A stretch of 64,000 bases of DNA from Geosiphon pyriformis uo1 (taxonomy: Eukaryota > Fungi > Glomeromycota), in contig JAAOMT010000245.1 in assembly GCA_016748015.1 (NCBI GenBank), forward strand, positions 19,941 to 83,940, read 5' to 3'. The notes beneath the pieces were generated by a model. That model made no database searches. It saw only the letters and a program-made list of their open reading frames with translations, and was not told the DNA's origin. The position numbers were made by a program, and so were the translations under genes. Of this stretch, positions 5,663 to 62,566 are shown in pieces. Position 1 is the first letter of the stretch, and each line of letters starts with the position of its first letter.

Positions 5663-5692
5663 TTTAAATTTGTTGCTGTGTTATTTCCATGG

Positions 5693-5704
5693 GAGAGCAC
5701 CAAA
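5693..5704 (-). promoter_or_regulatory. Primer-binding site TTTGGTGCTCTC (tRNA 3'-end complementary)
   Basis: Directly follows LTR end GTAACA. TGG is complementary to tRNA CCA. The same motif follows the 5' LTRs at 57365-57374 and 59898-59909. Confidence 0.85.
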
Positions 5705-6685
5705 TGTTACTGGAGGTTTTTGGTCTCTTTTCTGTAATGTTGTTGATACTTATTTGCTGTGAATTCATGTTTTCTGGATGTGGTTGAACCTCTAGTAACT
5801 GAATTTATCTTCAAATTATTTCCTATAATTTGAACTTGTTGGGCTTATGAGTAGAATGGCCAATTCCGTGCCAGTTGCTTTATGTAGTTACGTTGTAGTA
5901 AATGTCAACTCTTTCCCAGGAATTGCTTGTCTGGAAGCTCACTAAAAATGTGTAGTTACTTTGCTGTGAAAGTTAACTCTTCTACAGGAATCTCATCTGT
6001 AGGTTACCCTAATGATTATAATAAGAAAATAAAAGAAAATAAAAGAAATATAAAAGAAATCGAATTTTGTCAAGAGAAATGTTTTTGATCCAGGCCTGGA
6101 GTCACTAACAGTTTTACTGAAATTGGTAGCTAATCAATTTCAAAACGTTAGTTGGGTTTTGGGAATTTTCCAAAGGCAATAATTAAAGAATTTGGTTTTT
6201 CAATTATTTGATATTTATTTGTTTTTGTGTGTATAAGAACGGTTTTTAAGAGATAAATCTAAAGTAAAATACATTTTCTCGAAAAGAGAAGCTCTTCTTT
6301 TATACAACTTGTCGTAATACTATTCTATGAACTTGAATTTTGCTATTTTCTACAATTTCGCTGAACTAAAGGTGCATTTTGGCGAACTACAAGTTATTTC
6401 TGCGAACTATTAGATATTTCGGTGAACTATCACTTATTTCGGCAAATTTCTATAAATTTCAGCGAACTTTTGAATGTTACATAGTTCGGGGTATTGCATG
6501 ATAGATCATCGCAATTAGGTTACATTTGTGTTGTGTACAATTTGGGTTATTAATTAAATGATAATTTCGGACATTCTTTGCTAATGTAATAAGTGATAAT
6601 TTGAAATGATAATATGTGTTAATTAATGATAGGAATTATAAGATAGTTTCATGCTAAATGATATCTCTAATTTCGTCTGGTAACA
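5705..6685 (-). repeat. 5' LTR of G1 (~981 bp)
   Basis: TGTTAC/GTAACA inverted termini; PBS adjacent; unrelated LTR sequence resumes at 6686. Confidence 0.85.
6357..6470. repeat. Six ~20-bp tandem units with core TTCGGCGAA in the U3 region of the G1 LTR
   Basis: Cores at 6357, 6378, 6398, 6418, 6438 and 6458. Confidence 0.85.
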
Positions 6686-32383: not shown

Positions 32384-32612
32384 AAAAAAAAAACTTCTTT
32401 CTCTTATTCATCCCAAATTCCCAAAAAGACCCAAAAAATTTTTCTGAAAGAAGTTTTTTCAATATTCAGCATAATAAATCCAAAAAACTCTTTCTTTTAT
32501 TGATTCTCTGGTCATGAAGAGAGCATTGAGTTGTCATTGAAATAGCCTTCCTTTTCCCTTTCTCCTTCAACTTTCTCCAGTTATTTATTCAGACATTCTT
32601 TTTTTTATAGTT

Positions 32613-39862: not shown

Positions 39863-40741
39863 TGTTATAAGTGATTATTTGAGATTTTAAATCAAATAAC
39901 AAACTTATAACTTGGTGCTTAATTAATATATTAATGATGTATATAATTTAATGGTTTTATCAGTCTGAAGGTTTTGGTTATAGTTCTTTGTATAATGGAC
40001 AGAAATAGTAGTTGTTTCTTGAAATTGCAATTTTTGCCCAATTTTTTTTTCAGCTTGGCAGCCAAATTTATTCTGACAATTATGCCTTTCTGATAAGCTA
40101 ATTGTTAATATATATAATTCTACCCTTATTTCTGGGTTTTTTACCAAACTATTCTTGATGTTAATAATTCAGTGCTTTAATCCTTAATCAATTAGTATAC
40201 AACAATAAAATCAAAGAAAAGAAAAGAAATAAAAAAAATAAAATAAAAAAAATAAAAGAAATAAGCCAAGGCAATTTGCAAATTAGTATCCCATCAATAG
40301 TTATAATCAAAAGCTATTGTTCTAGTGTAGTTAAGTATCAATTACTATTAACATAGAGTGTTGATAGTGGAAAGTGAATTTAAGATAGTAAATAATTATT
40401 TATTGATTAGAAAAGTTGCTTAGATTAAATCTAAACTGAGAGGTCTGTCTTTTCTACTTTTAATGCTACCATTATATATACATAATTAAAATTCCTTAAT
40501 TTCTCAATTTTTTATACCAGAAATTCTGGAATTCCTAAAATCCTGCAATTCTTTTGAGAGGAATCCTGGAATTCTAGAATTCTGCAATTTTTCACTCAAG
40601 AATCTTGAAATTTCTGGAATCCTACGATTCTTTTAAGAGAAATCCTGAAATTTCTGGAATCCTGGAATTCCACATTTACTATGTCTACCTCTGATTGGCT
40701 AATTTATATGCTAATATACTTTTTATATTCTATAAGTAACA
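39863..40741 (-). repeat. G2 3' LTR
   Basis: TGTTAT...GTAACA; preceded in element sense by a decayed PPT; near-identical to 59910-60675. Confidence 0.9.
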
Positions 40742-40754
40742 TTATTCTCTTATT

Positions 40755-41316
40755 TTAATATTGAGCTCTATCAAAATTTCCTAAATCTCCTAACTCTACT
40801 TCTCCATTTTTGAGTATTTCTTGAATTTCTTTTTTGAGAATTACTTGTGTTATCTTGTTCAAATTGGGCATTGGTTATTTTTTCCATTTGGTTAACAGTA
40901 ACAGTATTCATTTCTGTGTTGAGTAAAATTTCTGGTCAATCTTAAAATCTAGTATGTATCCAATAAATGGCTCTTGTTTGTGTGGTCAAATTGTTCTTTC
41001 CAATAAATTGTTTTAGTTGTTGCAGTATTGCTGTATCAAATAATTATTTTGTTTTATCCATATATAAATTTTGAATATTCAAGTGTTGTCTCAAATAAAA
41101 GTAACAAAAGTTTCTTGGAAATTGTTGTATCTACTAATTCTAAATTTCTATAGTTAACTCTTAGTATTGAGTAATTTTTGGTTGTGCTTCTATTGCCAAT
41201 TTCACTTTTGTGATTATTTTGTCAACAGTGTTTTCTGTTTTTCTCTGTACTTTATCCTGTGGTCTTTTTCTGGTGGTTGTGTATCTGATAGTTTTTTGAT
41301 TGATTGTGATTTTCAT
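40755..41316 (-). pseudogene. G2 ORF3 (unknown protein between integrase and PPT)
   Basis: Collinear with the G3 copy 49267-49839; most stops are complemented by the other copy; 11-bp deletion near the 3' end. Confidence 0.7.
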
Positions 41317-41442
41317 TTCTTGTTGTTGAATTAATTGGAAGAGTTATTGTGCTAATGAGTGAATATTGTCAGTAATTTCTATTTTTTTGATGTCTTTCAT
41401 TACATCTACTCTGTCTTTATATACTCTTTTTATTGTTCAATT

Positions 41443-44400
41443 TTATGTGTTTGTTTCAATGATTATGATTGGTTCCAGATCTCATGAAATCTCATCTGGT
41501 TAGACTAGTATTTGCTGTACTCTCAGTTGTGGAATATTATTCATAGATAATGATACTGTATGATAATATGGTTTTAGTCAATCACTATGTGCTGCTTTGG
41601 CCAAGATTTTGTTGTTTCATCTTAATTTATAAGCTTCATTTCCTAGAATTTCTTCTATGTAAAATGGTCTATCCCATTTGGAGTCGAATTTTCTACTTCA
41701 TTGTTTTTCTGCTTTGGTACAATGTAAAAGTATTTTGTCTCTAATCTTGAATTCAACTGGTTTATCTGGTAATTAGTTATTATGTTATTCTTTTTGTTTT
41801 TCTTGTAACTTTTGAATATTATTAGCTGCTCTTTGCCTTTTGTTTTCTAGTGTTTCTATTATGTCATATGTTCTTTTCAACAATGTTTCTTGAAAATTAT
41901 CTTCTGTTATTGGTTCAGTTGGATATGTGTTGACTTCTATCTCTACTGGTAATATTGCTGTTCTACTATACACTAATTCAAATGGTGTCACTTGTATAGT
42001 ATCTTGCTTCATTGTCTGATAAGCAAATAATACTAATAGTAAACAAATCCCATTTATCCTGGTTTTTTTGGCTGATCTTGGCAATTGCTTTACACAATGT
42101 TCTATTGAATCTTTCAATTAAGCCATTTGTTTATGGATGATATAATAATGATAATGGTCTTTTAATTCCAAATCTTTGACTTAATTCTGACAATGTTCTA
42201 TTTACAAAGTGAGTTCCTTGATCTAATAGTAATTTTTTTGAACATTCATGTTGACAAATCAAATCTTGATGGACAAATTTGGCAATGAATTCTGCATCTG
42301 TTCTTTGAATGGCTTTTGCTTCTGGCCATTTAGTGAGATAATCCATGACTACTGCAATATATTTGTTGTCTCTGCTAGTGATTGTTAATGGTTTGACTAA
42401 GTCAATTCCAATGTAATCAAATAGTTGTTCTATTCTGATTGGTTTTAATGGTTCAGTCAGTCTTGTTCCTTTTCTTCTTTGACAAGTATTACAATTCTAA
42501 ACATATTGAATGATATCTGAATATATTGATGGCCAATAGTATCTATTTTTGGTTCTTTTTATGGTTGCTTCTTTATGAAAATGTTCTGCTGTTGGGTCTG
42601 AGTGCATATTGAATAGTATTGTCTCTTTTTCTGGTTCTGTAACTACTCTGATTGGTTGATCTGAATTTCTTTTGTTTTTCTGATAAAATATATTTTGATG
42701 GTTAATAAAGTATTTTGATTGTTGTTTTATGTTGTTTCGTTTCTTTTGAGATAATTTTTTTTTAAACTGTTAAGTATTTATATAATGTTAAAATTGTTGA
42801 TATTTTTGTGTGTTCATTTTTTGTTATATATTTATGTTTTCAATTTGTTTGGATTTGTTATATTTTTGGGTTAAAATGCTCAGATTTGTTTCATTTATAA
42901 CAAATTATCAGCATTTTTATTTTTTTTTCCCTTTTTATAGTGTACTGTAAAAGTATATAGTAAAAGTACTATTTTTCATCTTGCATGTCAATCATCTCCA
43001 AATTCTTGCTTCTGGATTAAAGTCAATCCTTTGTGATCAGTGTGCATCTTAAATTTTTGGCTTAAGTATTTTTTTCATTTCATAACTGCCCAATAGATTG
43101 CTAAGTGTTCTAATATTGGTGTTTTATAATTTTTTTCAGCTGGAGTCAAACCTCAGCTGGTATATGTAACTGGATGTTTTCTTCCATTTGGTTCTCTCTG
43201 AGATAGTACTGCTCCTAATATTTAACCTAACACATATGTGGTGATAATGAATGGCTTACTATGATCTGAATATATCAACACTGGAGCTTAAATAAGCTTT
43301 TTTCTTAAAATGTCAAAAGCTTCTTGCTGAATTTCTGTCCATTTGTATTTTATATTCTTGGTTTGGAAATGGTTAAGTGGCTGAGCTATTTTAGAAAAGT
43401 CTTTAATGAAGTGATGATAATAGCCTGTGAATCCCAAGAATGATTTTAATTTGGTTAAGTTGGTTGGTACCAGAAATTTTTTTACTATCTTTATTTCTCT
43501 GAATTCATTTTGATTCTGTTTTTGCTCATTACATGTTCTAAGAATTTCAGTTCTGTTTTGCTAAAAAAACACTTAGTAGTATTTAACTTTAGTTCTGCTC
43601 ATCGTAGCCTTTCAAATACTTGCTGTAGATAATAGATGTAATTATTGAACATTCTTAAGAATACGTTGGTATTGTCCAAATACATGACTACTAATTTCCA
43701 TAGCAGTCTAGTATATACTATTTCCATTAGCCATTGAAATGTGGCTGGTGCTTTCATTAAGCTGAATGGCATGACTTCAAATTCAAAATTTCCCTCTTTT
43801 GTGGTAAATGCCATTTTCTCTTTGTTGGCTGAATTCATGGCTACTTGCTAGTAGTCACTATCTAAATTCAATGTTGAGAACCATTTCTTTTCTTTGAAAG
43901 CATCAAACAATTTCTGAATTCATGGAGTTGGGTAACTGTCTCCACAAATAACTCTATTGAGTTTTCTATAATCCACACAAAAGTGAATCTTTCCATTCTT
44001 TTTCTAAACTAGTACCACTGGTAATGACCATGGGCTTATTGATGGCTGAATTAGTCTGTTGTCAAGCATCCGATTGATTTCTTGACAAATGATTTCATGG
44101 CTGACTGGTAGTATCCAATATGCTCTTTGTTTAATTGGCATTGCATCTCCAGTCTTAATCTAATGCTGGATAATATCAGTTTGGCCAAATTTGTTTTTAC
44201 TTGCAAAGATGTCATTGAAGTTTTTAAGTAACATCTTGAGTTGCATATATTGAAATGAGTCTAAGTTTCCCATGTTTATTTGGTTCAATTGTGCTGATTG
44301 AAACAAGTAGCATTCATTTCATCCATATATTGTCTGTGATGTAATATTCACATATCCACACAGTTGTGGAAAATCCAAAATGGTGCTTGGTGGTTGCTCT

Positions 44401-47400
44401 TCAAGTTCCATGCTTAAGTATTCAATGATAATTCTTTTGAGTATTGTAATGACATCTCCTGTTGTATTGTGGATGAGAATTTTGATATGGTTATGATTCT
44501 TGGCTGATATGTAGAAATTAATGAGTCCAATTTCTCTTGATTCACAAATTGTTGCTTCTGTCTCAAAGATCTGGGCTTGGTTCTTCATTTTCCTTTCTAT
44601 TACTAACATGTACTAATCATATGGTGGAATGAAAATTGATTGATGGGTGGAGATAATTTCTTCCTTGTTAACAATTTCTTCCTCTGCCATATTGATTGGT
44701 ACATTGTTACCCAAGTAGAAAAACCAATCCAAAGTTATAAAGAAACATGACCAAAATGTGACATAACACAGAATAATACGCAATAATGTTGGATAACGCG
44801 TTATAATGTTGGATAACATGTTATAATGCAGGATAACACAGAATAGCATGCAATAACATAGGATAACACAGAATAACATGTAATAATGTCAGATAACGTG
44901 TTATAATATAGGATAACTAGCGATAACGTAGAAAAACAAAGCAATAACAGAAACAACAAAGCAATAGCTAGCGATAGCGAGACAATTGAAAGCAATCCTA
45001 TAAAACCAAAAGAATGTATAAAAGCAAGTAGTTGTAGAAGTGAGAAAAGACAGAAAAGAAAAAATAGATATGAACCTCTAAACCAGAAATTAAAATATTC
45101 ATATTCCTTCATTTTTTATTATCTTCCCTATTTCATCTCCTAAAATAAACCAATTATTAAAAGAAATCAGAATCACGAATTCATGTTCTCGAACTTCATG
45201 GAATTTACGTGAATTAACCCTTGTCTCGTACTTCCATTCTAGAACAGATGCTCTTAGCATAACTATCTCGAACCTATTAACGATTTGGACCAATCGCTCT
45301 TGATCATGGCAATTGACAATACTAATTTATCTTTTTTCTTTTTTCTTTTCTTTTCTTTTTCTTTTTTTTTCTTTTTCTGTCTTATTTTTTTGTGGAGCGG
45401 CAACATAGTAAAATTGACTGTCTGGGAATAAACTTCGTGATAGCCTGGTAAAAGAGGGAAGCTTCCCCTAAGTTTTGGATATTAACATTATCTTGTTAGC
45501 TTACCAGAAGGGCAAAAAGACAACGCCAGACCCTAACAACTGTACTCGTTAGCTCGGAGAAGAAAGCTCACATTTATGAAAAACGTTGCAATTGACAAAA
45601 AACAAACTCTCTGCCTTATAACCAAAGAACTCAATGGGTAAAATTCACATCCAGGAATAGACCTTTAGAAACTGATAATCAAGACTAAGCCAACAGAATT
45701 ACACAGAAGACGCATCATCAATAATTGAGAGCACCAAATGTTACCATTTCCCATACCCACCAAGTTTACCTGTAACAACGTTTATTCTATTTGTTGATTC
45801 AAATTTACTTATTTCTCTTGCTGTGATTTCTAATTCTTCTCTATTTCCCACTGAAATTAACTGAGCTACTTTAACCAAAGGTAAGAATATTGCCTGTATT
45901 ATCTTTTTATTTGGCTCTATGATATAAGTCTTTTCTGAGTTATTTTGTAGCATTGCAATAATATTTCCTATGTATTCTACATCAATTATCCCTCCTCTAA
46001 TATTGATTTCTTTTTTTGTTAAACTACTTTTAGAGACTAGTTGAATCATTGTTGTTGCTGGGATCTCTAATTCTATTTTTAAATCAATACATGTTTATGA
46101 ATGTGGTTCCAATTTTATGGCTTCTTTTCTGAAATATCTCAGATCAAACTCTGCATCTGTATCATGCACGCATTTTGACATGATATTTTCATCATTATCA
46201 CTGAATTATTTAAGTTCTTGCTTTTTGGTGAGATTGGGGAGTGCAATGTATTGTTCAAAGTTTGAATTTGAGTTTGAGTTATTGTCATTTTGGTTGTTAT
46301 ATTAGATAGAGCTAAAACCAGTGTTTTTGTTGTCATTGTTGTTGGAGTTTGAATTGGGATCGAAAATTGATTTCAATTCTGATGCACAGCTGCTGATTGG
46401 TTTTTTTTCTTTGGAGATTGTATAGATCATGTATGGTAGTAGATTGTAAATAAGGTCACAATTATCACAATATTCAAAATTACTGAGAATTAAACAGTGT
46501 TAGTATAGTCTGGTATTTAATTCTTTTAGCCATTGTTTTTGCTCTTCCCTAGTCAGTGCCAATTCCTGGTAATGTTTATAGAATTGCTCTGGGTCTATTG
46601 GCTTTAAGACAATATCTGAGTTTGGGCCCTAGTTAAGTTTTATTGGTTTGAATGAATTGTTTTTGATCACTCTGATCTCTTTGGATATCACTCCTTCGAT
46701 TTTTGTGAGTGCCATTCACCAAATTTTGTTGTTATTGTGTGGGCAACCATCCAGACATTTTACAGTTCTTCTTCAGGTGGCTTTTATTGGTGTTCCTTTT
46801 TTAACCTAGTTACTTATTAGAATCATGTATTGACACAATTTGTCACATGTTTCTCTTCACTCAAGAATGTTATTCCACATTTCTTTATCTAAAAAAGTTT
46901 TTTCACAAGCCAAGCATGGTTTATTATCCCATTTTTCAACTCATTTTGGTCTTCCAAAGTGTTCTAGGATGCATGGACAACAATAAAACTTAGTTGCCAT
47001 TTGGTATTCCTCATTATCACCACAGCATGCATCTATTGACAACAATTTTTTGCTGCAATTAATACATATGAGCTTTGGTCAGCAATAAGTGGATCATTGT
47101 GGTATAGTATAAGTGTAGGAGTTATAAGTGGTGATGTTGGTGAGTGTTGTTTCTTCTTCCTTCCCTTTTTGTTTTTCCTTATTGCTTTTTTCTCCCTCCC
47201 AAGTTATTGGTTTTTCTTGGTCATTATTATTTACTCAGGCTTGGTTAGAATTCCAGATAAGTTCTTCTTTTTGCTTTCATTTTCCAGTGTTATTCCAAGA
47301 GAGTATCAGTAATAGCTTATTGTGGTCTTGATTGGTCCATAAAACTTGATAAACTTCTCAGATAGGTTTTTTTTCTTTTTTTTTGAACTCGATGAGAGTT

Positions 47401-48446
47401 GCTGTTAGTGTGTTGATAAGTTTAAAGTGGCTGGTACACATGTGTGTTGACTATTTTGGTTAATTTGAAGCTTCTGCATGGTCCAGTCAAGCATCACATT
47501 TGTTTTGGACAGCCAATTATTACCAACAAATGCTTAGTATTGGGTGGCTTTTATGACTAATATCATGATGGGTACAATAATGCCATTGACTTTAAAAGAA
47601 AAGTTATCAATTTTGTCTATAGGAGTCTTAGTAGCTCCAATAGCAGTAATGATTTTGGCACTGGCAATGCAATCAACTCAGTGATCTAATTGGTCTATAA
47701 GTTGTTTTGTTATGATACTGCCAGCTGACCTACTATTAAGGATAAGCTTGATAGATTGCTCATCGACTTTGATGTCAGTATATATGGCAGTAATTAGTTT
47801 GGTGTCAAGAGCAGCTCCACTAAATAATAGGATGGGTATAGTGTCCTTAAGTTTGAAAGAAAAAATGGTTGCTAAGAATTCATTGTTGGTAACAGTTGCT
47901 GGTAGTATGTTGCTAATAAGTAATTGTTTTTGGTTGACTTTTGAGTTATTGGATAAGTTGTCTTTTGGGATAACCAAAAGACTTAAATAGTGTTGGAAAT
48001 TCGGGTTTTGAACATGCCCAGTTTCCAAATTCTGAGAACATAATCCTGTTGGTTGGTGAAAGGAGCTGGGGATCAGTTAATAGACAACTATCACTGATTT
48101 CCAGTTCTGAATGACTCTTGATCTGGGATTTCCTGATGTCATATGAGCTGGGTTTGGTGGTAGTGTTTGAAATTGCTGTGATTGATAAATTACTGGTGGC
48201 TGTGGTTGATATATGACTTGTGGCTACTGTTAATAGACTGGAGTTTGATATACAGGTGGTTAATACATTGGTTGTTGCATCAATGGCAGGTAAGTCAATT
48301 GATATGGGGCTGGATTTGATTAAAAACTTGGAGTTTAAAACTGGTAATTGGGGTTTTGATATTAATTTCCTGATCATTGGTTATTTAAATATTGGCAGCA
48401 GTTGATTTGCAAATGTCTTTGTCTACCATAATAGTGGCAAGCATGC
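41443..48446 (-). pseudogene. G2 gag C-terminus and pol (zinc knuckle, PR, Cys-rich domain, dUTPase, RT, RH, IN), interrupted by a solo LTR
   Basis: LILNSRSAGSII; IRGGIIDVEYIG; YLDN; integrase HHCC, MDYLTKWPEA, DQGTHF and a GPF-type C-terminus. Confidence 0.9.
44705..45777 (+). repeat. Solo LTR (~1073 bp) of a further related family, antisense within G2 pol just after the dUTPase
   Basis: TGTTAC...GTAACA termini; 4-bp TSD ACAT/ACGT; host frame STNRINV|PINMAEEE rejoins; U5 blocks homologous to 6690-6960; ~10-bp ATAACACAGG-type tandem array at 44760-44930. Confidence 0.88.
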
Positions 48447-49253
48447 TGTTACAAGTGATTATTTGGGATCTTAAAACAAATAACAAACCCATAACTTGGT
48501 GCTCAATTGCTAATTCATGTATTAATATCTAAAGGTTTTGGTGTCTGAAGGTTTTTGGTTGAGTCCTTTGTATAATAGACAAAGATTCGATAATTGTTTT
48601 ATCCATTACTTCTTAAAACCACAGTTTCGTCAATTTTTTTCTTGGCATGATGGCCAGCAATTTTCTGGTAAGCTATTTTCAAATCTATGAGTGTTTATCC
48701 TTATTCCTAGGTCTTTTACCAGTGCTATATCCTGATGTCAGTACCTCTGTACATTTTTCTTTTAATTAATTAGTACACAACAATAAAATCAAAAAAGGAA
48801 AATAAAGAAAAAAAAGAAAGAAATAAAATAAATAAAGAAATAAGCCAATGCAATTGCAAGTTAGTATCCCATCAATAGTCATAATTAAGAGCTATTGTTC
48901 CAGTGTGATCAAGTATTAATTACTATTACCATGAAGTATTAATAACAAAGAGTAGATTTAAGATAGTGAATAATTATTTATTAATTAGGAAGGTTACTTA
49001 GATTAAATCTAAACTAAGAGATCTGTTTTTTCTACCTTTAATGCTACTGCTATATATACATAATTGAGATTTTTCAATTCCTTTGAGAAGAATCCTAAAA
49101 TTCTGCAATCCTGTGATTCCTCATATGAGAATTCTAAAATTCCTGAAATTCTGCAATTTCTCTGAGAAAAATTCTGAAATTCCATATTTACTATGCCTAC
49201 TTCTGATTGGCTAATCTATATGCTAATATATTTCTTATATTCTATGAGTAACA
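48447..49253 (-). repeat. G3 3' LTR
   Basis: TGTTAC...GTAACA; PPT adjacent at 49254-49268. Confidence 0.92.
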
Positions 49254-49266
49254 TTATTCCCTCCTT

Positions 49267-49935
49267 TTAATATTGAGCTCTATTGAGATCTCCTAAATCT
49301 CTTAACTCTAATTCTCCATTTTTGAATATTTCTTGACTTTTTTTTTCAAGAATTATTTGTGTTATCTTGTTCTGTAATTCTTCAAATTGGGCATTGGTTA
49401 TTTTTCCCATTTGGTTAACAGTAATGGTGTTCATTTCTGTATTGAGTAGAATTTCTGGTCTGTCTTAAAATCTTGTATGTAGCCAATAAATGGCTCTTGC
49501 TTGTGTGGTCAAATTGTTTTTCCTCACAAATTGTTCTAATTGTTGCAGTATTGTTGTGTTAAATAATTGTTTTGTCTTATCTGTGTATAACTTCTGAATA
49601 TTCAAGTGTTATCTCAAGTAAAAGTAACAAAAGTTTTTTGGAAATTGTTGTATCCACCAATTCCATATTTCTATAGTCAACTCTTGATATTGGGTGACTT
49701 TTGATTGTGTTTTTATCACCAATTTCACTTTTGTGATTATTTTGTTGACAGTGTTTTCTGTTTTTCTCTATACTTTATCTTATAGTCTTTTTCTGGTATT
49801 TGTGTATCTGATGGTTTGTTAATTGATTGTGATTTCCATTTCTTGTTATTGGATTAATTGAAAGAGTTGTTGTGCTAGTGAATGAATGTTGTCAGTAATT
49901 TCTATTTTTCTGATGTTTTTTGTTGCATCTACCAT
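49267..49935 (-). pseudogene. G3 ORF3 (unknown, ~190-220 aa, env position)
   Basis: One frame from ATG 49935/49839 to TAA 49267 abutting the PPT; internal stops are TAA/TAG, mostly at positions that are CAA/CAG in G2. Confidence 0.75.
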
Positions 49936-49966
49936 GTTTTTATATACTTTTTTTTATTGTTCAATT

Positions 49967-52900
49967 TTACATGTTTGGTTTAATGATTATAATTGGTTCT
50001 CGATCTTGTGGAATCTTATCTGGTTGGACTAATATCTGTTGTACTCCCAGTTATGAAATATTATTAGTGGATAATAATACTATATGGTAATATGGTTTCA
50101 GTTGATCACTATGTGCTGCTTTGGCCAAAATTTTGTTGTCCCATCTTAATTTATAAGCTCTATTTCTTAGAATTTCTTCTATGTGAAATGGTTTATTCTA
50201 TTTGGGGTTAAATTTCCACTTCATTGTTTTTCTGTTTTGGTACAATATAAAAGTACTTTGTTTCCAATCTTGAATTCAACTGGTTTATCTAATAGTTGGT
50301 TATTATGTCGTTTTTTTTGTTTTTTTTGTAACTTTTGAATGTTATCAACTGTTCTTTGCCATTTGTTTTCTAGTGTCTCCATTAAGTTATATGTTTTTCT
50401 TAGCAATGTTTTCTGAAAATTGTTTTTTGTTATTAGTTCTGTTGGATATGTATTGACTTTTATCTCAACTGGTAATGTTGTTGTTCTACTGTATACTAAT
50501 TCAAATGGTGTTGCTTGTGTAGTATCTTGCTTTATTGTCCAATAAACAAATAATACTAATGATCTAAACAAATTTCATTTGTCTTGATTTTTTTGACTAA
50601 TTTTGGCAATTGCTTCATACAATGTTCTATTGAATCTTTTAACTAAGCTATTGGTTTGTGGATGATATGGTGATAATAATGGTCTTTTGATTTCAAATCT
50701 TTGACTTAATTCTGTTAATGTTCTGTTCACAAAGTGGGTTCCTTGATCTGATAGTAATTTTTTTGGACATCCGTGTTGACAGATCAAATCTTGATAAACA
50801 AATTTGGCAATGAATTCTACATCTGCTCTTTAAATAGCTTTTGCTTCTGGCCATTTAGTAAGATAATTTATGGCTATTGCAATATATCTGTTGTCTCTGT
50901 TGGTAATTGTTAATGGTCTGACTAAGTCAATTCCAATGTGATCAAATAGTTGTTCTACTTTGATTGGTCTTAATGGTTTACCTGGTCTTGCTTCTTCTTT
51001 TCTTTGACAAGCATTACAATTTTGAACATATTGAATAATATCTGAATATATTGATGGTCAATAGTATTTTTTTCTGGTTCTTTCTATGGTTGCTTCTTTA
51101 TGAAAATGTCCTGCTGTTGGATCAGAGTGTATGTTGAATAATATTGTCTCTTTTTTTGATTCTGTGATTACTCTGATTGGTTAATCTGGATTTTTTCTGT
51201 TCTTCCAATATAGTATATTTTGATAAGTAATAAAATATTTGAATTGTTGTTTGATGTTGTTTTGTTTCTTTTGAGATAATTTCTTCTTGAACTGTTGGGT
51301 ATTTATATAATGCTGGAGTTGTTGATATTTTTGTGTATTTATCTTTTGTTATATTTTTGTTTTCAATTGTTTGGATTTTGTTATATTTTTGAATTAAAAT
51401 GCTCAGATTTGTTTCATTTACAACAGACTGTCAATATTTCTATTTTCTTTTTCCTTTTTATAGTACACTATAAAAGTATATGGTGAGAGTGCTATTTTCT
51501 ATCTTGCATGTCAATCATCTCCAAATTTTTGCTTCTGGATTAAAGTCAATCCTCTGTGATCAGTATGCACCTCAAATTTTTGGCTTAAGTATTCTATTTC
51601 ATGGCTGCCCAATAAATTGCTAAGTGTTCTAGTGCTAGTGTTTTATAGTTTTTTTCAGCTGGTATTAAGCTTTAACTGGTGTATACTACTGGATGTTTTC
51701 TTTCATCTGGTCATTTTTGTAATAATACTGCTCCTAATGCTTGGCCAGATGCATCAGTAGTGATGATAAATGGTTTGCTATGATTTGGATAGATTAATAC
51801 TGGGGTCTAAATAAGTTTTGTTTTCAGTATATTAAAAGCTTTTTGCTGAGTTTCAGTCCATTTGTATTTGGTGTTTTTTATCTGAAGTTGATATAGTGGT
51901 TGAGCTATTTTGGAAAAGTTTTTGATAAAGTGACAGTAGTATCTAGCTAATCCCAAGAATGCTCTTAATTCTGTGAGATTATTTGATACTAGAAAGTTCT
52001 TAATAATCTTAATCTTATCTGGATCTGTTTTGATTCCATTTTTACTCACAACATATCCCAAAAATTTGAGTTCAGTTTTCCCAAAAAAGCATTTGGTGGC
52101 ATTTAGCTTCAATTCAGCTCTTTTTAATCTTTTGAATACTTGTTGAAAATGGTGTAGATGATCATTGAATATCTTAGAGAATATATTAGTGTTGTCTAAA
52201 TATACAACTATTGATTTTCATAACAATCCAGTATAGACAATTTCTATAAGCCATTGGAATATTGTTGGTATATTCATCAAGCCAAATAGCATTACTTCAA
52301 ACTCAAAATTTTCTTCTCGAGTTGTAAAAGCCATTTTCTCTTTATCTTCTGGTTTCATGGCTACCTGCCAGTAACCACTGTCTAAGTTTAAAGTTGAAAA
52401 TTATTTCTTTCCTCCAAAGGCATCAAACAGTTCTTGGATCTTTGGAGTTGGGTTGCTGTCTTTCTTGGTTACTCTATTAAGTTTCTGGTAATCCACACAA
52501 AAACGGATTTTCTCATTTTTCTTATGGACTAATACTACTGGTAATGACCATGGGCTCATAGATGGCTGAATTAGTCCGTTGTCAAGCATCTGATTGATTT
52601 CTTAATGAATGATCTTATGGCTGGCTGGTAATACTCAATATGCTCTTTGTTTGATTGGCATTGTATCTCCAGTCTTAATTTGGTACTGAATTATGTCCAT
52701 TCTGCCAAACTCATTTTCACTTGCAAAAATGTTGGTAAAGTTGTTGAGTAACATTTTGAGTTCTATATGCTGGAGTGGGTCTAAGTTTCTCAGATTTATC
52801 TGTTTTAACTGTTTTGATTGAAGCAAATAACATTTATTTTGTTTATAAATTGTTTGTGATGTTATATCAACATATCTACACAGTTATAGAAAGTCTGAAA

Positions 52901-55900
52901 TGGAGTTTGGTGGTTGGTTCTCAATTTCAGTAATTAAGTATCTAATAATGGTTTTTTCTGGTATTTCCATGATATTTTCTATATTGTTGTAAATAAGAAT
53001 TTTGATGTAATGGTGGAATGAAAATTGATTGACAGATGGAGGTAATTTTTCATTTGTCAACAACTTCTTTCTCTGTCATATTAATTAGTATATCTATTCT
53101 ACTTGTGAATCCAAATTCACTTATTCTTCTTGCTGTGATCCCTAATTCTTCCCTATTTCCTACTGAAACTAACTGAGCTACTTTAACCAAAGGTAAAAAT
53201 ATTGTCTGTGCAATCTTTTCATTTGGCTCTATGATATAGACTTTTTCTGAGTCATTTTGTAGCATTGCAATAATATTTCTTACATATCCTGCATTAATTA
53301 TTCCTCCTCTGATGTTGATTCCTTTTTTTGCTAAACTACTCCTAGATGCTAGTTGAATCATGGTGGTCACTGAAATTTCCAGTGCTATTTTAAAATCAAT
53401 GCAAGTGAATGTGGTTCCAATTTGATGACATTTTTTCCTGAATACCTCAGATCAAACCTTGCATTGGTATCATGTGCATGTTCTGGCATGATATCTTCAT
53501 CATTATTACTGAACCATTTTAGTTCTTGCTTCTTAGTAAGATCAGGGAGTGCAATAAATGTTTTAGAATTTAAATCAGAGTCCGAATCATTGTTATTTTC
53601 ATTGTCATATTGAACAGAGCTGGAACTGGTGTTTTCATTGTCATCATTGTCGGAGTTTGAATTGGGATCAAAAATTGATTCTGATTCTAATATGCAGCTG
53701 CTGATTGGTTTTTCCTCTTTTGGGATCATGTAGATCATGTGTGGTGGTGAATTATAAATAAGGTCACACTCATTACAATATTGAAAGTCACATGGAATCA
53801 AACAGTAGTCACATAATCAAGTGTTTATTTCTTCCAAACATTGTTTTTGTTCTTCTCTGGTGGGTGCTAGGTTCTGATAGTGTTCATGAAATTCTTTTGG
53901 GTCCGTTTCAATGTTTAGGAAAGCATTTGAATTGGAAATTAACACAACATTAATTGGTTCAAATGGGTTATTTTTGATCTCTAAGATTTCTTTGGGTGAA
54001 GTGTCTTTGACTTTGGCATTTGCCATTTGCCAGATCTCATTCTCATCATGTGGGTAACCATCCAAGTGAGAGATTACTTGGTGCCATGTGACAGTAATAG
54101 GTGTGCTACAACTAATTCAGTTGCTTATGAAGATTATATACTGACATAAAGTATTACATATTTCTCCTTGTCCAGAAATGTTATTCCATATTCTTTCATC
54201 CAGTAGTTGTTCACCACAAGTAAGACATGGTTTGTTGTTTCACTTGCCTTGTTTTTTAGGATAACCATAGCATTTAGGGTGGCATGATTTGTAGCAATAA
54301 TAAGTTTATGTCTAGTAATTTTCATCTGGCACTACTCAGGCTCCCATGGAGGACAGTTTTTTTTTGCAGTCTTTGCACCTGAGGAAAATATAAGGTGGTT
54401 CTGGCCTGGTATTCATGGAGTATGAACTTCTCCAACTGCTAGTTTCCATGTTGTCATTGGTCTTTTCAGATATGTCTTTTTCCTTTTTTTTCTCTTTCCC
54501 TTTGTCTTTTTCTTCCCAGTCTAGAATTGGTGGTAGCTCATTGTGGTCTTCATTAGCCCATGAAACTTAATAAGCTTCCCAGGTAAGTTTTTTTCTTTCT
54601 TTCTTGAATTCAATAAGTGGTGCTGCCATGGTGGTGTTTTTGAAGTGATCACATGTGGCTGGTACATGTGTGTGTTGACTGTTCTGGCTCAGTTAGAGCT
54701 TCTGCATGTTTTAGTTGAATGTTATGTTGATTTTGGACAACTAGTTATTGCCAACAAGTGCTTGATACTGAGTGGCTTTCATGATTAATATCTTGATTGG
54801 TACAATAATGCCATTAACTTCTATGGGGAGATTATCAATTTTGCCAATTGGAGTTTTGGTCACTCTATTGGCCATTATGATTTTGGTGCTGGCAGTGTAA
54901 TCAACTCAGCAATCTAATTGGTTTATGAATTGTTATGTGATAATGCTGTCTGTTGACTCATTATCTAATATGAATTTGATGGAATGGCCATCAACTTTAG
55001 CATTAGTGTACATAGTAGTGATTGGTTTTTCTTTGAGCACAGCTCCACTGAACAAAAATGTGGATGACAGTTCTTCGAGTTTAAATGAAAAGATTGCTGC
55101 CAATGATTTATTGTTGGTGACAGTGGCTGGAGATATGTTGCTGGTGAGTGTTTGTGTTTGGTTGGTTTCTATGTTGTTGGATGTGGCATTTTCTGGGATA
55201 ACTAGGAGACTTAAATAGTTCTGAGAACTCAGGTTTTGGTTATACCCAGTTCTTGAATTCCACTGGCATGATCCTGATGGCTAGTTGGATGAATTAGGAA
55301 TCAGTTGGTAAACAACCATCACTAATCTCCAGTTTTGAATGACTTTTGATCTAGAATTTCCTGATGTTATTTAAACTGAGTTTGTTGTGAGAATTTGAGG
55401 TTAATATATTATTTGTGGCTGTAGTTGATAGATAGATTGTGGCTGCAGCTGATAAATTACAGGTGCTGGAGGCTGATAGATTGATGGTAAGTAGATTTGC
55501 TGTGGCATTAGTGGGTAATGGGGTTGATAGTGGTTCTGATTTGAGTGGTAATTTGAAGTTTGAAATCAGCAATTGGGGTTTTGATATTTATTTCCTGATT
55601 GTTAATTATTAATTCTAATATAGCAGTTAATTCTAATGTGCCCTTGTTTACCACAATTGTGGCAAATATGCATCTCTTGCTACCATAATGATTGTGTTGT
55701 CATAAAATGTGACTGATGTTGTTGCTGCTCAATGGTTCTGAGATTGTTGCAATGTTGTGGTGGTTAATATATGGTTTGATTATTGTTAGCTAAGTAACTC
55801 TTTAGTTTCTAATTAATTGAATTACTGAATTGTTTCAATTTAGAATCCAATTCAGATGATTTGTTCATTACTAAATTGATAGTTTGGGCATAGTTTGCTT

Positions 55901-57312
55901 CAAGTTTAGCAGATTCAAAATCTCTTGCATTGGTAACTGCGTCTTGGAGCATTTGTGAGTGCATTGGATGTATGTATTGGAAGATGCTACTGTATAATTC
56001 ACGGATGAACTGGTTCAGAATCTGTGGTGCTGTAAAGTAATCTGCATTGATTGCTTATATTTGGTGTAAATTTTTATGAAAACATCCTAGGTAAGTAGTA
56101 ACTGCTTCAGTTTCTCTTTGCTTAATGGTGGTAAAAGTATTTGCTAAGTGGTTAATACTATTATGGTTGCTAAAATATCTCAAAAATTCTGTTTTAAATA
56201 CATTAAAAGTGATAGGTTTGTTGATTAGACTTTGATATCATAAATCAGCAATATCTTGCAAAAAGTATAAAATGGCCTGTAGGGCTCTGGCATTGTCTTA
56301 ATTGTTAGCCATGATTGCTTTGGTGATGTCATTGAGCCACACTTGGGTGTTATCTTTTTTGCCCATAAATTTTTCTAATTTGACAATAGAAGTGTAGGCC
56401 ATTTGTTGTTGTGGTTGCTGTTGCAGCTGCTGCTAGAATTGTTGTTGGGATAGCAGTTGTGGCTGTTGTTGCTGCTCAACAATTGGTGGAATGGGTGGTA
56501 GATTGATCTCAATTATTGGAGATAAGTTTTTCTTAATTATGTCAGAGTTTAAATTGTTTAGATTTTCTGGAGTTTGAATATTTGGGGTTTGATTTTCTGG
56601 ATTTTCTGAGATTGGGTTTTGATAATTAAATTCTCAATCTTCATTTTCTTTTTCCTCAGATTCCGTTACTTTCCAAGAACTCACAGTTCCAAAATCTGGT
56701 AAGGATAACAGCAATTGAAGTTTTGATGGTATTGGTAATCACAAATTAAATTCTTCAAAATATTTGCCATAAGTTCTTAATAATTTTGCTTTCTTTTGTT
56801 TACTTTGGAATGAAAATCATCTAAATATTGATGTTGTGTTTGATGTAGATGCACCTGTTGATGTAATATTAATGGCACTTCCAGGTATATAGTAGTATGA
56901 TGAATTAGTTGGTGGTTTAAACTCTTGTTTTCTTCCAAGTGGGTGGTTGTACCTTTTAAGATGTTACTGCTGGTGTTTGTAGTTTTCTCTTGCCTTTGTT
57001 TGCATAGGTAATTGGGTATCTTTGCTGAATATGATATTCAATTTTCTTGTTGATCTCCATAAGGATTGCTGTAAAATTGTGGTTTGCTAGTAAGCTAGTG
57101 TTTTAAATTAATTTGTTGTAAAAGTTTCTTTTTGCTGAATCAGTTTCTACTGGTACTCTTAACAAGTATGAAATTTTTTCATTGACATAGAAGTTGAAAG
57201 CTGATTCTGTTGATAGGTGATTACTGGTTAATTCCAAGTGTTGACAGTAGTATTGGAATAAGAATTTGGTGAATTCTAAATGGTTTGTTCTTATTTTTTC
57301 TGGTTTTGCCAC
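49967..57312 (-). pseudogene. G3 gag-pol (N-terminal domain, Gag, PR, Cys-rich domain, dUTPase, RT, RH, IN)
   Basis: MAYTSIVKLEKF Gag start at 56402; CHNCGKQGHIRINC; ASRSSLAKKG..GGIINAGY; LDSGYWQ; TDASG; integrase ending EPIIIIKPNM*. Confidence 0.92.
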
Positions 57313-57374
57313 TTTTGGATGATTGTTGTTGGTGCTGGTTCTCTTTAAAATTATACCTCACAAGGAGCACCAAA

Positions 57375-58196
57375 TGTTACAGATGATTATTTGGGGTCTT
57401 GAAACAAATAACAAACCCATAACTTGGTGCTTAATTGCTGATTTGTGTATTAATATCTAAAAATTTTGGTGTCTGAAGGTTTTTGGTTGAGTTTTTTGTA
57501 TAATGAACAGAGATTTGATAATTGTTTTATCCGTCACTTCCCGAAACTGCAGTTTTATTATTTTTTTTCTTGGCATGGTGGCTGGCAATCTTTTGATAAG
57601 CTATCCTTAAATCTATGAGTGTTTACCCTTATTTCTGGGTTTTTTACCAGTGCTATATTCTGATGTCAGTATCTTTGTGCATTCTTCTTTTAATCAATTA
57701 GTACACAACAATAAAATCAAAAAAAAAATAAAGAAAAAAAAGAAAAAAAGAAAATAAATAAAAAAATAGGCCAATGCAATTACAAGTTAGTATTCCATTA
57801 ATAGCTGTGATTAAGAGCTATTGTTCTAGTGTGGTCAAGTATTAATTACTATTAACATGAAATATTGATAGCAGAAAGTGGATTTAAGATAGTGAATAAT
57901 TATTTATTAATTGGGAAGATTGCTTAGATTAAATTTAAACTGAGAGATCTGTCTTTTTTACCTCTAATACTACTGCTATATATACATAATTGAAATTCCT
58001 CAATTCCTCGATTCCTGCAATTCCTTTAAGAAGAATTCTGGAATTCTGGAATTCTGCGATTCCTTATATGAGAATCCTGAAATTTCTAGAATTCTGCAAT
58101 TTCTCTAAGAGGAATTCTGGAATTCCATATTTACTATGCTTACTTTTGATTGGCTAATCTATATGCTAATATATTTTTTATATTCTATGAGTAACA
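57375..58196 (-). repeat. G3 5' LTR
   Basis: TGTTAC...GTAACA; PBS adjacent; in element sense CCAAT box (AGCCAATC) near the 5' end and a TATATA box. Confidence 0.92.
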
Positions 58197-59846
58197 GTGC
58201 ATTTTCTGTTGCCACTGTTGATTGGTTGATAATGCTAAATGTGGTTGATTTTAGAAACAATTGGAGTTTCCTTGATTGCTATGTCATTGTGGTGATTGAT
58301 AGATTGTCTGATTGTTGTTAGCTAAGTATCTTTTTAATTTTTGATTGATTGAATCACTAAATTGTTTCAATTTGGAATTTAATTCAGATGATCTATTCAT
58401 TACTAGATTTATGGTTTGGGCATGATTAGCTTCAAGTTTGGCAAATTCGAAATCCTGTGCATTAATAATTGCATCTTAGAGAGTTTGTAAGTACATTAGA
58501 CATATGTATTGGAAAATATTACTGTACAGTCCACAGATGAACTGGTTCAAAATTTGTGATACTGTAAAGTAATTCATGTCAATTGCTTGTATTTGGTGCA
58601 AGTTTCTATAAAAACATCTTAAGTAAGTAATAACTGCTTTAGTTTTTCTTTTCTTAATAGTAGTGAAGAAATTTGCTAACTGGTTGATGCTGTTATTATT
58701 ACTAAAATATCTCAAGAACTCAAGTTTGAATGTATTGAAATCTTGAGGTTTGTTGACCAGACTTTGATACTATGAGTTGGTGGTATCCTGGAGGAAATAT
58801 GAGATGGCTTGCATAACTTTGGCATTATTTCATCCATTAGTCATAATGGCTTTTTCTATGTCATTGAGTTATACTTGGATGTCATTTTTTTTGTTCGTAA
58901 ATTTTTTGAGTTTTACAATTGGTGAATATGTCATTTGCACAATTGATTATTGCTGTTATACTGATAGTGGTTAAAGTTGTTATTAAAGTGGTTGTTAAAT
59001 TAGTTCAATGGGTGGCTAATCAATGATGATTTCTGGAAGTAAGTTCAGTTAATTAATTAAGTTGAGATTTTGATTATTCTGATTTTGCTGATTAATATTA
59101 TCAGAGTTTGGGTTGTTCAGATTTTCAATTTCTGGATTTTCTAAAATTGGATTTTAATAATTAAATTTCTAATTCTCTTTTTTCTCTTCTTTTAATGTTA
59201 TTATTTCTCACAGATCAGCTGTTCTAAAATCTGGTTAAGATGACAGTAATCAAAATGCTAATGGTATTGGTGATCATAATTTAAATTCTTTGAAATAATT
59301 ATCATAAGTTCCTAATAACTCTGCTTTCTTTTGTTTACTTTAAAATAGGAGTTATCCAAATGTTGATGTCATGTTTGATATAGACATGTCTGCTGATGAA
59401 ATATTGATTGTACTTTTGAGTGTGTAGTAATATAATGAATATGTTGGAGATTCAATTTTTTGTTTCTTCCAGTTTGGTACTTGAATTCCTTTTGGTGTTA
59501 CTGCTGGTGTTTGTAACTTTCCTTTACTTTTGTCTATGTAGGTAATAGAAAATTGTTGTTGAGTGTATTTTTCAATGGTTTGATTGATTTTCCTAATGAT
59601 TGGCATGAAACTATGATTTTGTAGTAAGCTAGTGTGTTGAATTAATTCTGTGTAGAAATTTTTCCTTGCTGATTTAATGTTAATAGGTACTCCTAGAAAA
59701 TCTTTGATTTTTTTATTGATGTAAAAATTGAAGACTAATTCTGCTAGATAATGATTGTTGCTTAATCTTAATGGTTGACTGTACTGTTGAAATAAGGATT
59801 TGGTGAATCCTAAATGATTTGTTTTGATTATTTTTGTTTCTGCCAC
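58197..59846 (-). pseudogene. G2 gag 5' part (N-terminal domain and capsid)
   Basis: ORFs 59352..59846 and 58476..58715 are homologous to G3 57103..57312 and its Gag. Confidence 0.88.
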
Positions 59847-59909
59847 TTTTGGAATGGTTGTTGCTAGTGCTGGTTTTCTGTAGGATTATACCTTACAGAG
59901 AGCACCAAA

Positions 59910-60675
59910 TGTTACAGGTAATTATTTAGGGTCTCAAATCAAATAACAAACTCGTAACTTAGTGCTTAATTAATATATTAATGATATATGTAATTTGATG
60001 GTTTTATCAGTCTGAAGGTTTTGGTTGTAGTTTTTTGTATAATAGACAGAGATTCAGTAGAAATAGTAGTTGTTTCCTGAAATTGCAATTCTTGCCCAAT
60101 TTCTTTCTCAGCTTGGCAGCCAGATTTATTCTGGCAGTTATGCCCTTCTGATAAGCTAATTGTTAATATATATAATTCTACTCTTATTTCTGGGTTTTTT
60201 ATCAGACTATCTTTAATGTCAATAATTCAGTGCTTTAATTCTCAATCAATTAGTATACAACAATAAAATCAAAGAAAAAAAAAAATAAGGAAAAAAAAAT
60301 AAAAAAAATAAGTCAAGGCAATTCGCAAGTTAGTATTCTGTCAATAGCTATGATTAAAAGCTATTGTTCCAGTGTGGTTAAGTATCAATTACTATCAACA
60401 TAAAGTGTTAATAGTAAAAAGTGAATTTGAGATAATAAATAATTATTTATTGATTAAAAAAATTGCTTAGATTAAATCTAAACTGAGAAGTCTGTCTTTT
60501 TTACTTCTAATACTACTGCTATATATACATAATTGAGATTTCTTGATTCCTCAATTTTTCACACCAAAAATTTTGGAATTTCTCTAAGAGGAATCCTAAT
60601 ATTTTACATTTACTATGTCTATCTCTGATTGGCTAATTTATATGCTAATATACTTCCTATATTCTATGAGTAACA
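59910..60675 (-). repeat. G2 5' LTR
   Basis: TGTTAC...GTAACA; PBS adjacent; matches 39863-40741. Confidence 0.92.
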
Positions 60676-62566
60676 ATGTTCTGACAACTTTTTTGCTTTT
60701 TAATTACATTGTTAATCAATTTTATAAACTGTTTTCTAGCTGCTATAACCAACACTCTTGTATTATGTAAGTTGTTTTTGAGCAATAATTTGCTTAATGT
60801 TTTCCAAATTGCTAATAATATTACTATTGTAGATGTTTTAAACTTAGAATAATATTTAAGTATAGTAAGTTTGCTAAAGAGATTTGGTATTATTTTTGCA
60901 AACCAGTTTTTAAATTATTATGGCATATGTTTTATATAGAGTATATTTTACAAGTAAAAAAAATTAGATCTTAAAGATCTAATTCCTAATTAATTAAATT
61001 TATTAATCAAGTTTATTAAGAATAATAATTTGAATAGTAATAGTGCTCTGGTCTTTTATTTTACTTCTGTTTAATGTTTGGGCAAATTTGGTTCTGTTTG
61101 TGAATATTTTTTAAAAAATAAAACTAATATTATAATTATTTATATAAATAATTTGGTCAAAAGTTTGGGATTTGTAAGTACTTATAATAGTACTGCTTTT
61201 TACTTTCTAAATATAGACATAAATATAAGAATTAAGATGAATGACTTGTTCTTTTCAACTTTGATAGAACTACAAGCCATTACTCTTGCTTTAAAATATG
61301 TTTTAGTGTCCAGTTTAGTTGTGTTATTTATAAATAGTCAGATGTTATTGGATATAAGTATCTCAATTGGAAAAAATATTAGTCTTAATTTTTGCAATAA
61401 ATGCTAAATAGAAAGAAAACATATTTATTATGTTATTATGTCTAAAGATCTGTCAGTTAATTAGAATAAGATCAAAAGTCATTTCAAAATTATTGACAAT
61501 AAACATGCTGATTTTTTTGTTAATACTATTATTATGTTTGATTTTACATTATTTATTAGAATGCTATACTGTTTTCTTGCTGTTGAAAACAGATCTGTTT
61601 TTGAAAACATTTGCTATTTCATCAAGTATCTTTTTGAAATTATTAGTTTTGTTAATTGAGATTTCAAATATGTTAATGATATTATAAAGAAGTCTTTGTA
61701 TAGCTTAATTAATATGTATAAAACCTTTAATATATAACATTTAGATGGTTAAATTCATTTAAGTTTTACTAGTTCAATCTTTGTAATACTTTAGTATTAT
61801 TTTATAAAAACTTTATACTACTAATTGTCTATAGCCAAAAGAAAAAAATTATATAATTCAAGTTATTTTAGTGTGTTGTATATTTAATATAAGTTAGTTA
61901 AAAATTCTAATCATATATTTTCTTATATTTATAATATTTGTGTTAGGATAAATTTGATTCTAAACATTATTAAAATATGAATTGGTTTATTAAATGTCTG
62001 TATTACTAACAGTATGGTTCTCTAGTTTTTGTATAAGGCCAAATCTTTTAATTATTTATATATGTTTTTGGCCAAAAGTTTTGTGATAAGAAAATAAATA
62101 ATTAACACAATATATTTATTAAGTAGCAAATCTGATAATGTGTTATTAATTATCTATTTGATCTAAGATTTTGTTAAGAATTACAGATTTACCATGTGAT
62201 TGTCAACTGTCAAAATAAGGATGTATTATAAAAAACATAATTTTTTGTCATATAATAGGTCTATAATTTTAGTTGTATCTAATTTAACATCTATATGATC
62301 TCTTAAAATGATTTATGATTTTGGTTTTAAGTTAGGTGTTTATGTTTGTTTTGGTTTGTATTTTTGTTTATCTAATATATATTTTGGTTTTTTGCATGAT
62401 TTTTCTGTTATAAGTAATTTAGATATATAATGTTGTCTTGATTAATTCAAGTGGTTGGTCACATATAAAAAGAACATAAATCATACTTAATTTAAGATTT
62501 TGTATGATTTTATGATTTTAAATAGTAGTTAAGTTGTATTTATAAAACAATTTATAAAAAAAAATA
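60676..62566 (+). mobile_element. LINE D, right part (RNase H, CCHC region, 3' UTR), heavily AT-mutated
   Basis: IYINNL/ELQAITLAL/FINSQ/KIKSHF..NKHAD (decayed RNase H); 3' UTR motif at 62439-62490 shared with LINEs A and B; A-rich end. Confidence 0.8.

Follow-up and report, generated by a model that had tools for sequence, protein, structure and literature searches.

A decayed Ty3/Gypsy retrotransposon of Geosiphon pyriformis with a conserved N-terminal domain and a cysteine-rich module ahead of its dUTPase

The subject of this report is G3, a long terminal repeat (LTR) retrotransposon in a 64,000-nucleotide (nt) stretch of the Geosiphon pyriformis uo1 genome (contig JAAOMT010000245.1, positions 19,941 to 83,940), hereafter the window. 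G3 lies on the reverse strand, nested within a colinear element, G2, and an element with another LTR family, G1, is found at the start of the window. G3 is probably a dead, transition-riddled copy of a non-chromodomain Ty3/Gypsy lineage of this Glomeromycota fungus or its close kin, with a Gag-Pol in one frame that carries a conserved N-terminal domain (N-domain) and, before the dUTPase, a cysteine-rich (Cys) module that is likely zinc binding and predicted to tether the dUTPase. The parts of G3 are as follows.

48447..58196 (-): the whole G3 element, nested within G2
57375..58196 (-): 5' LTR, 822 bp
48447..49253 (-): 3' LTR, 807 bp, with its own copy of the anti-PBS at 48496-48504
57424..57432 (-): anti-PBS of the U5 region (complement of the primer binding site, PBS), the 5' arm of a predicted hairpin
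57355..57372 (-): PBS, 18 nt, starting with TGG, 2 nt past the LTR
56962..57312 (-): N-domain, ~110 amino acids (aa), with GTG at its start
55776..56402 (-): Gag capsid domain (PF03732), with a conserved Met at its start
55623..55664 (-): CCHC zinc knuckle (from sequence; PF00098 in G1), then a Gln/Pro-rich stretch
54651..55022 (-): aspartic protease (PF13975), decayed
53721..54398 (-): Cys module: CxxC-x22/24-CxxC; CxxC-x19-CxxxC followed by a helical bundle; CxxC-x3-C-x4-CxxC
53508..53720 (-): acidic low-complexity spacer
53095..53495 (-): trimeric-type dUTPase (PF00692), frameshift near 53406
52737..53094 (-): linker between dUTPase and reverse transcriptase (RT), 131 nt shorter than that of G2
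51990..52736 (-): RT (PF00078), decayed
51480..51989 (-): RT connection and RNase H (PF17919, PF17917; 3' limit approximate), frameshift near 51595
50009..51243 (-): integrase (PF17921, PF00665) with HHCC part, core and GPY/F-type C terminus, without a chromodomain match
49267..49935 (-): open reading frame 3 (ORF3), ~222 codons with its own AUG, predicted helical
49254..49268 (-): polypurine tract (from sequence)
48443..48446 and 58197-58200: left and right copies of the 4-bp target duplication

The two LTRs of G3 have TGTTAC...GTAACA ends and are 88% alike, with 94 transitions versus 4 transversions over 805 columns. The target duplication of G3 (GCAC/GCAT) and that of G2 (ACAT/GCAT) are both 4 bp long with one transition between the copies, and five contigs of run X1 skip 9754 bases (9750 plus 4) at the G3 site, which bears out the 4-bp duplications claimed in a preliminary description of the locus. 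In Pfam scans, for which the stop codons of decayed copies were read as X, the domains of G3 appear in the order gag, protease, dUTPase, RT, RNase H, integrase H2C2, and rve. G3 thus shows what defines Ty3/Gypsy (Metaviridae) elements: TG...CA LTR ends, a PBS, a polypurine tract, a target duplication, and gag followed by protease-RT-RNase H-integrase. The composite order proposed earlier (N-domain, Gag, protease, Cys module, dUTPase, RT, RNase H, integrase, ORF3) is present in G3; G2 is colinear with it, and the insertion point of G3 is the gag of G2. G1, also said to share this order, does so in Pfam up to RNase H and is cut by the window start. The composite architecture of G3 is real. The other LTR elements of the window are listed below.

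39863..60675 (-): G2, architecture as G3, LTRs at 60675-59910 and 40741-39863; split by two insertions, G3 (in gag) and a solo LTR
1..6685 (-): G1, truncated at the window start, with an LTR of another family at 6685-5713 and a single frame that spans N-domain to RNase H
44705..45777 (+): solo LTR of a third family, 1073 bp, within G2, with a 4-bp target duplication (ACAT/ACGT)

The single frame of G1 holds 10 internal stops in the 1742 codons translated, plus one in the N-domain. A stop-free relative, the ENA metagenome protein P0354 (1064 aa), contains protease, Cys module, dUTPase, linker, and RT, and runs in one frame from a Gln-rich stretch to RT. Its dUTPase matches PF00692 (E 2e-20) over residues 8-129 of 129, and the five motifs, numbered as is usual for dUTPases, are recognizable; the dUTPase of G3 is decayed and still matches PF00692. 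The linker between dUTPase and RT was considered as a second, degenerate dUTPase, which found no support (probability 0.6%).

The Cys module is composed of three cysteine clusters around a helical bundle, with spacings of 2-24-2, 2-19-3, and 2-3-4-2 in P0354. It is kept in G1, G2, G3, further Geosiphon families, and relatives from outside, with 30 to 60% identity. Among the best 120 of 176 matches to the Cys region, all of them Geosiphon pyriformis gene models, the protease is located upstream of the module in 113 and downstream in none, and the dUTPase is located downstream in 73 and upstream in 1. The structure predicted for the module has a predicted local distance difference test (pLDDT) score of 77, with residues 71-150 near or above 90. 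Its weak fold rows are treble-clef fingers (LIM, GATA, MYM, and ribosomal L24e); the finger types are a reading of cysteine spacing and these rows, because every fold match falls short of Z 5 and E 0.001. The TRASH/MYM-type treble-clef signature is CxxC-x19/22-CxxxC followed by a helix, and the second cluster has a spacing of 2-19-3 in P0354 and P0392, with a helix following in the model. For this cluster, L24e-family chains score Z 3.4-3.8, on a par with unrelated rows, and Pfam has no match. The whole module matches no Pfam family, its profile retrieves nothing among PDB sequences, and an Atlas query combining it with the protease gave protease-type leads only, all under 0.9. Judged from spacing and the weak rows, this is likely a three-zinc-finger module.

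We tentatively propose, by analogy and somewhat short of an even chance, that the Cys module tethers the dUTPase to nucleic acid during reverse transcription. The protease would free a zinc-module-dUTPase protein, which would stay at the reverse-transcription complex so that uracil is kept out of the cDNA, a role also suggested for the nucleocapsid-dUTPase fusion of betaretroviruses. Alternatively, the module may be a targeting or chromatin-reading adaptor that acts independently of the dUTPase and steers integration into repeats in place of a chromodomain. All four LTR insertions with visible surroundings sit in other mobile elements, and in three the duplicated target alternates between purine and pyrimidine; in addition, no chromodomain was found, the weak fold rows include LIM, GATA, MYM, and PHD fingers, and sister proteins hold a Cys insert without a dUTPase. 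However, the module is far from the integrase in the polyprotein, and nesting in repeats is to be expected because 41% of the G. pyriformis genome is LTR sequence according to the accessible text of PMC11952901; we regard such an adaptor as unlikely. A relationship of the Cys module to the insert of the metagenome protein P0242 was ruled out by comparison.

Returning to the one-frame Gag-Pol with its two conserved modules, the N-domain opens in an AAA-GTG-G context in G1, G2, and G3, with no in-frame AUG between the PBS and this GTG in any of the three, and Phe-Lys-Val stands at the N-domain start in 33 of 39 G1-type gene models. The idea that an AUG once stood at the GTG or ahead of it was rejected, as no variant at 14% or more is seen at the GTG or the upstream ATA among 3156 contigs, in a surveyed stretch whose edge lies 15 nt from the GTG. 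It is therefore possible, going by sequence, that the N-domain starts at GUG. A spliced leader is the rival to this start because a few residues ahead of the GTG look conserved and a splice acceptor is present in the leader. The capsid domain opens at a conserved Met, and the N-domain would be an N-terminal extension of Gag, reached through a non-AUG start or a spliced leader. The N-domain of the G1 family aligns with that of the G3 family (HHalign 91%, E 1e-6, 14% identity), which indicates that the domain is conserved across deeply split families; like the Cys module, it has no match in the libraries searched. A relationship between the N-domain and ORF3 was ruled out by profile comparison. 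Run X2, nearly without the element, holds in its record 14 a single 629-nt contig (depth 65) that spans 56726-57175 with 40 differences.

ORF3 opens with an AUG of its own, downstream of the pol stops, and runs to the polypurine tract. Its subfamilies, 56-76% identical, share their start and stop and are for the most part colinear over that length. The best 19-residue hydropathy is 0.27-0.63 in all four models, which gives no membrane segment, so ORF3 is not env-like, and the "retrovirus-like" accessory complexity put forward in the preliminary description falls away. Pfam gave no match and the Atlas no usable match, and a fold search with a poor helical model (pLDDT 46) as the query found nothing. 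ORF3 would be a soluble accessory protein, with no envelope function.

At the 5' end, the PBS of G1 and the different one common to G2 and G3 both start with TGG, are 18 nt long, and are compatible with a tRNA 3' end, with a possible resemblance to tRNA-Ile. The T-arm of tRNAs requires G at PBS position 16 and a purine at position 17, and both PBSs have these residues. A candidate tRNA would prime reverse transcription there. The U5 anti-PBS claimed earlier was found ~58 nt ahead of the LTR end. In the predicted hairpin, U5 is base-paired to the LTR end and to the first 7-8 nt of the PBS; shuffled U5 sequences fold as well in 1/500 cases for G3, and over a longer 146-nt stretch the z values are -1.1, -2.4, and +0.5 for G3, G2, and G1. 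The anti-PBS is also found in the LTR fragment at 6947, and the U5 of the solo LTR holds, at 45729, a perfect 18-nt complement of LTR end plus PBS. The anti-PBS is probably functional because the same arm recurs in unrelated LTRs, three families in all. A second near-complement of the PBS is located in the leader at 57329-57337 (-), downstream of the PBS.

We suggest that, with the first 8-10 nt of the PBS buried in the U5 hairpin and its remainder exposed as a toehold, tRNA priming would be gated. The anti-PBS could instead be a self-primer as in Tf1-type elements, without any tRNA gate: its last bases are CCA, it is complementary to the start of the PBS, and three LTR families have it, and hairpin priming, like U5 stems, has precedents in some chromoviruses (in the accessible text of PMC3601003). 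A self-primer of 8-10 nt would not, however, preserve 18-nt PBSs with G16 and a purine at 17. The most TATA-like box also sits ~550 nt upstream of the anti-PBS, and we regard self-priming as very unlikely. Tf1-type elements have the PBS complement at the 5' end of the transcript; in G3 a complement is present in U5.

G3 is complete in outline but dead, with ~40 in-frame stops within the domains scored and frame changes near 56930, 53406, 51595, and 50217. Transitions dominate in the LTR pairs (94:4 in G3, 83:2 in G2) with no CpA preference, and the observed/expected ratio of CpG is 0.08-0.17 in G2, G3, and a long interspersed nuclear element (LINE) versus 0.8-0.9 in host genes. Classical CpA-type repeat-induced point mutation was ruled out, as 3' contexts follow background. 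A 5' T is found at about half of the variable LTR columns versus 16/84 invariant C, and 28 of the 44 columns with C/G in one LTR only have no CpG context; T-to-C change may therefore also occur. The idea that the ancestor could be rebuilt from G3 by reversing transitions does not hold, given the indels, the 131 nt missing from the linker relative to G2, and the probable T-to-C changes.

Transversions between G2 and G3 amount to 3-7% in the RT-RNase H part and fall to 0.3-2.6% past ~51600. The drop, which lies between RNase H and integrase, is sharp (~51600 in G3, 43075 in G2), and the values are low again in U3. The two families thus look recombinant, with a common integrase-ORF3-U3 half. Because this recent half is nearly free of transversions, G2 and G3 are not independent witnesses for ORF3, and selection on ORF3 is not measurable from them. 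Upstream, the transversion-based ratio of nonsynonymous to synonymous change (dN/dS) is 0.15 for gag, 0.16 for protease, 0.10 for RT, 0.13 for RNase H, and 0.10-0.14 for dUTPase, compared with 0.38, 0.41, and 0.26 for the parts of the Cys module and 0.57 for the N-domain.

Several observations weigh against the reading given at the outset. The excess of third-position transversions reaches significance in the helical part of the Cys module alone (p 0.033), not in its finger parts (p 0.087 and 0.17), the N-domain (p 0.37), or ORF3 (p 0.53, 11 transversions). In addition, the model of the Cys module has no match at those thresholds (Z 5 or E 0.001) in PDB, viral, or wide structure searches. In the metagenome proteins P0241 and P0242, the segment from protease to RT holds a different Cys insert (CxC...CxxC, later CxxC...H) and no dUTPase, so Cys inserts need not serve a dUTPase. 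All 84 ORF3 matches are Geosiphon gene models, and shuffled U5 sequences fold as well in 21/500 cases for G2 (moderate) and 175/500 for G1 (chance level).

The lack of significance for ORF3 and the N-domain in the dN/dS comparison, together with the poor fold of ORF3 (pLDDT 46), could mean that both are neutral passenger sequence. Stops common to G2 and G3 argue otherwise: the ORF3 frame has 1 versus 20 and 6 in the other two frames, and the N-domain frame has 0 versus 5 and 4, as the integrase control has 0 versus 19 and 18. ORF3 is ancestrally open, its subfamilies keep their identity and colinearity from start to stop, and the N-domain is homologous across families with unalignable LTRs; a neutral origin for both therefore has only the slimmest chance.

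The family of G3 is very abundant, with 76,420 contigs of run X1 matching G3 at 80% or more. Beyond the gene models, a HMMER search with the Cys module against 1.84 billion representatives gave 213 matches, 150 of them listed; of 144 new ones, 26 were looked up, chosen mostly for divergence, and comprised 21 from Geosiphon, 1 from Ambispora gerdemannii, and 4 ENA proteins. The Ambispora match covers the third Cys cluster and the start of a dUTPase. Geosiphon and Ambispora both belong to the Archaeosporales, whose members share LTR bursts according to the accessible text of PMC11952901. Scans of viral contigs found no related locus, scans of metagenome contigs gave 132 pattern matches with 0 related, and a motif scan gave 50 loci with 0/50 related.

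In order to place the lineage, the best 120 of 7151 RT matches, mostly animal multi-RT chimeric models, were used; of 102 RT-RNase H regions cut from them, 43 remained after reduction at 75% identity, a further 18 were dropped (two for their long branches, the others as redundant rows from arachnids, frogs, and fish), and the final tree has 28 rows, none of them a named reference element or a fungal chromovirus. G1, G2, G3, and P0354 form one clade (support 95/83), in which P0354 fills only 36% of the columns, and they join four metagenome proteins without dUTPase, P0239-P0242, in a clade with 98/98 support. The RT of P0354 is closest to Ty3 among solved structures (7q5b and 4ol8 first). Grouping with three algal rows, two of which bear chromodomains, was rejected (approximately unbiased test, p 0.0155). 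No chromodomain follows the integrase in Pfam scans of G2 or G3, whose copies are decayed, and stops common to both lie shortly past the GPY/F part in the integrase frame.

The suggestion of a distinct, probably undescribed lineage is upheld as far as the single clade, the modules conserved across families, and the literature are concerned: searches aimed at the lineage, with repeat libraries and supplements outside their scope, found no description. What does not stand is the uniqueness of the domain layout, since protease-dUTPase-RT-RNase H-integrase plus ORF3 is published for rotifer elements (PMC5408684, accessible text). The lineage might already be catalogued in Repbase, Dfam, or the library of a genome paper, or fall in a named clade, its extra segments being known spacers; most G. 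pyriformis repeats have been put into known classes by automated annotation (accessible text of PMC11952901), and protease-dUTPase-RT is published for Postia and rotifer elements. The empty literature searches, the absence of Pfam or structure matches for the Cys module and ORF3, and the rejection of a tree with the lineage among chromodomain-type rows make this improbable. The lineage is apparently an uncatalogued Ty3/Gypsy variant with unclassified conserved modules; it is neither retrovirus-like nor categorically new.

Around these elements, 6686-7003 (+) is the 3' part of a G2/G3-like LTR in opposite orientation and the apparent insertion target of G1. Decayed LINE-like copies with RT and their own RNase H lie at 7005-12365 (+), 19320-27400 (-), 31900-39850 (+), and ~61000-63000, and G2 was apparently inserted in one of them; past the first, 11739-12989 is a long, weak, very AT-rich self-inverted stretch. 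Two host genes encode a LIM plus RhoGAP protein (~14100-18300, +) and a Cbf5/dyskerin-like TruB-PUA pseudouridine synthase (approximately 29300-30700, +). The solo LTR contains a 10-bp tandem array (44743-44941) and a T-rich run, and Rfam gave no match across 39800-60800.

These results name the parts of what is probably a major Geosiphon repeat lineage, in a genome with the LTR content cited above, and hundreds of Geosiphon "hypothetical protein" models turn out to be pieces of dead retrotransposons. Two unclassified protein domains and an orphan ORF3 are added, and P0354 is a stop-free natural relative suited to assays. If zinc modules beside Gypsy dUTPases are tethers, they would represent repeated convergence on the betaretroviral design; the general understanding of retrotransposons is unchanged. 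A more far-reaching picture, which we consider rather doubtful, would have much of the Geosiphon LTR expansion driven by an Archaeosporales-specific lineage. Its dUTPase would be fused to a new zinc protein with several fingers, a nucleocapsid-dUTPase by convergence; its Gag would have an extension with a non-AUG start, and its soluble ORF3 would be novel. A U5 arm that mimics tRNA would keep the PBS locked until displaced by a full tRNA, and might in this way protect the PBS from tRNA fragments.

Among known systems, the nearest RT-RNase H sequences of the rows examined are those of P0239-P0242 (55-57%), which have no dUTPase and in two cases carry an unrelated Cys insert. Terms for Gypsy branches are given in PMC2774666, non-chromoviral Ylt1-like Gypsy elements are known in fungi (PMC3248453), and dUTPase enrichment is reported for Entomophthora gene models (bioRxiv 2023.09.13.557621), each as far as the accessible text goes. 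Env-bearing, errantivirus-like Gypsy elements have a membrane-anchored ORF3 with fusion-protein homology, whereas the ORF3 described here has no membrane segment or Pfam match. The betaretroviruses mouse mammary tumor virus and Mason-Pfizer monkey virus have a nucleocapsid-dUTPase fusion (PMC4531489, accessible text). In these viruses a zinc-binding module, and in the lineage a likely one, stands immediately before a trimeric dUTPase within a polyprotein that is processed by a protease. However, the betaretroviral zinc part is a CCHC nucleocapsid joined trans-frame upstream of the protease, and the module of the lineage is non-CCHC and downstream of it, so the likeness is a functional analogy only.

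PosPlaTy3-5 of Postia placenta resembles the lineage in its fungal host and in a dUTPase between protease and RT, and dUTPase-bearing Gypsy elements are also described from Phanerochaete and Tuber (PMC2864245). That paper places these elements among chromodomain-containing ones, whereas the lineage lacks a chromodomain and is rejected from the chromodomain-type rows sampled; its accessible text mentions no Cys module or N-domain for them. The closest published layout is that of Juno, Vesta, and TelKA from bdelloid rotifers, with protease-dUTPase-RT-RNase H-integrase plus an ORF3, of 210-230 aa in some (PMC5408684). In the accessible text, these elements share with the lineage the domain order, a GPY/F module, the lack of a chromodomain, and a separate ORF3, and Juno even has an extra zinc knuckle beside the dUTPase. 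The Juno knuckle, however, comes after the dUTPase, whereas the 215-aa three-cluster module of the lineage comes before it, and the rotifer ORF3s are env-like, membrane, GDSL, or DEDDy proteins, in contrast to a lineage with a predicted soluble ORF3 and, in addition, an N-domain.

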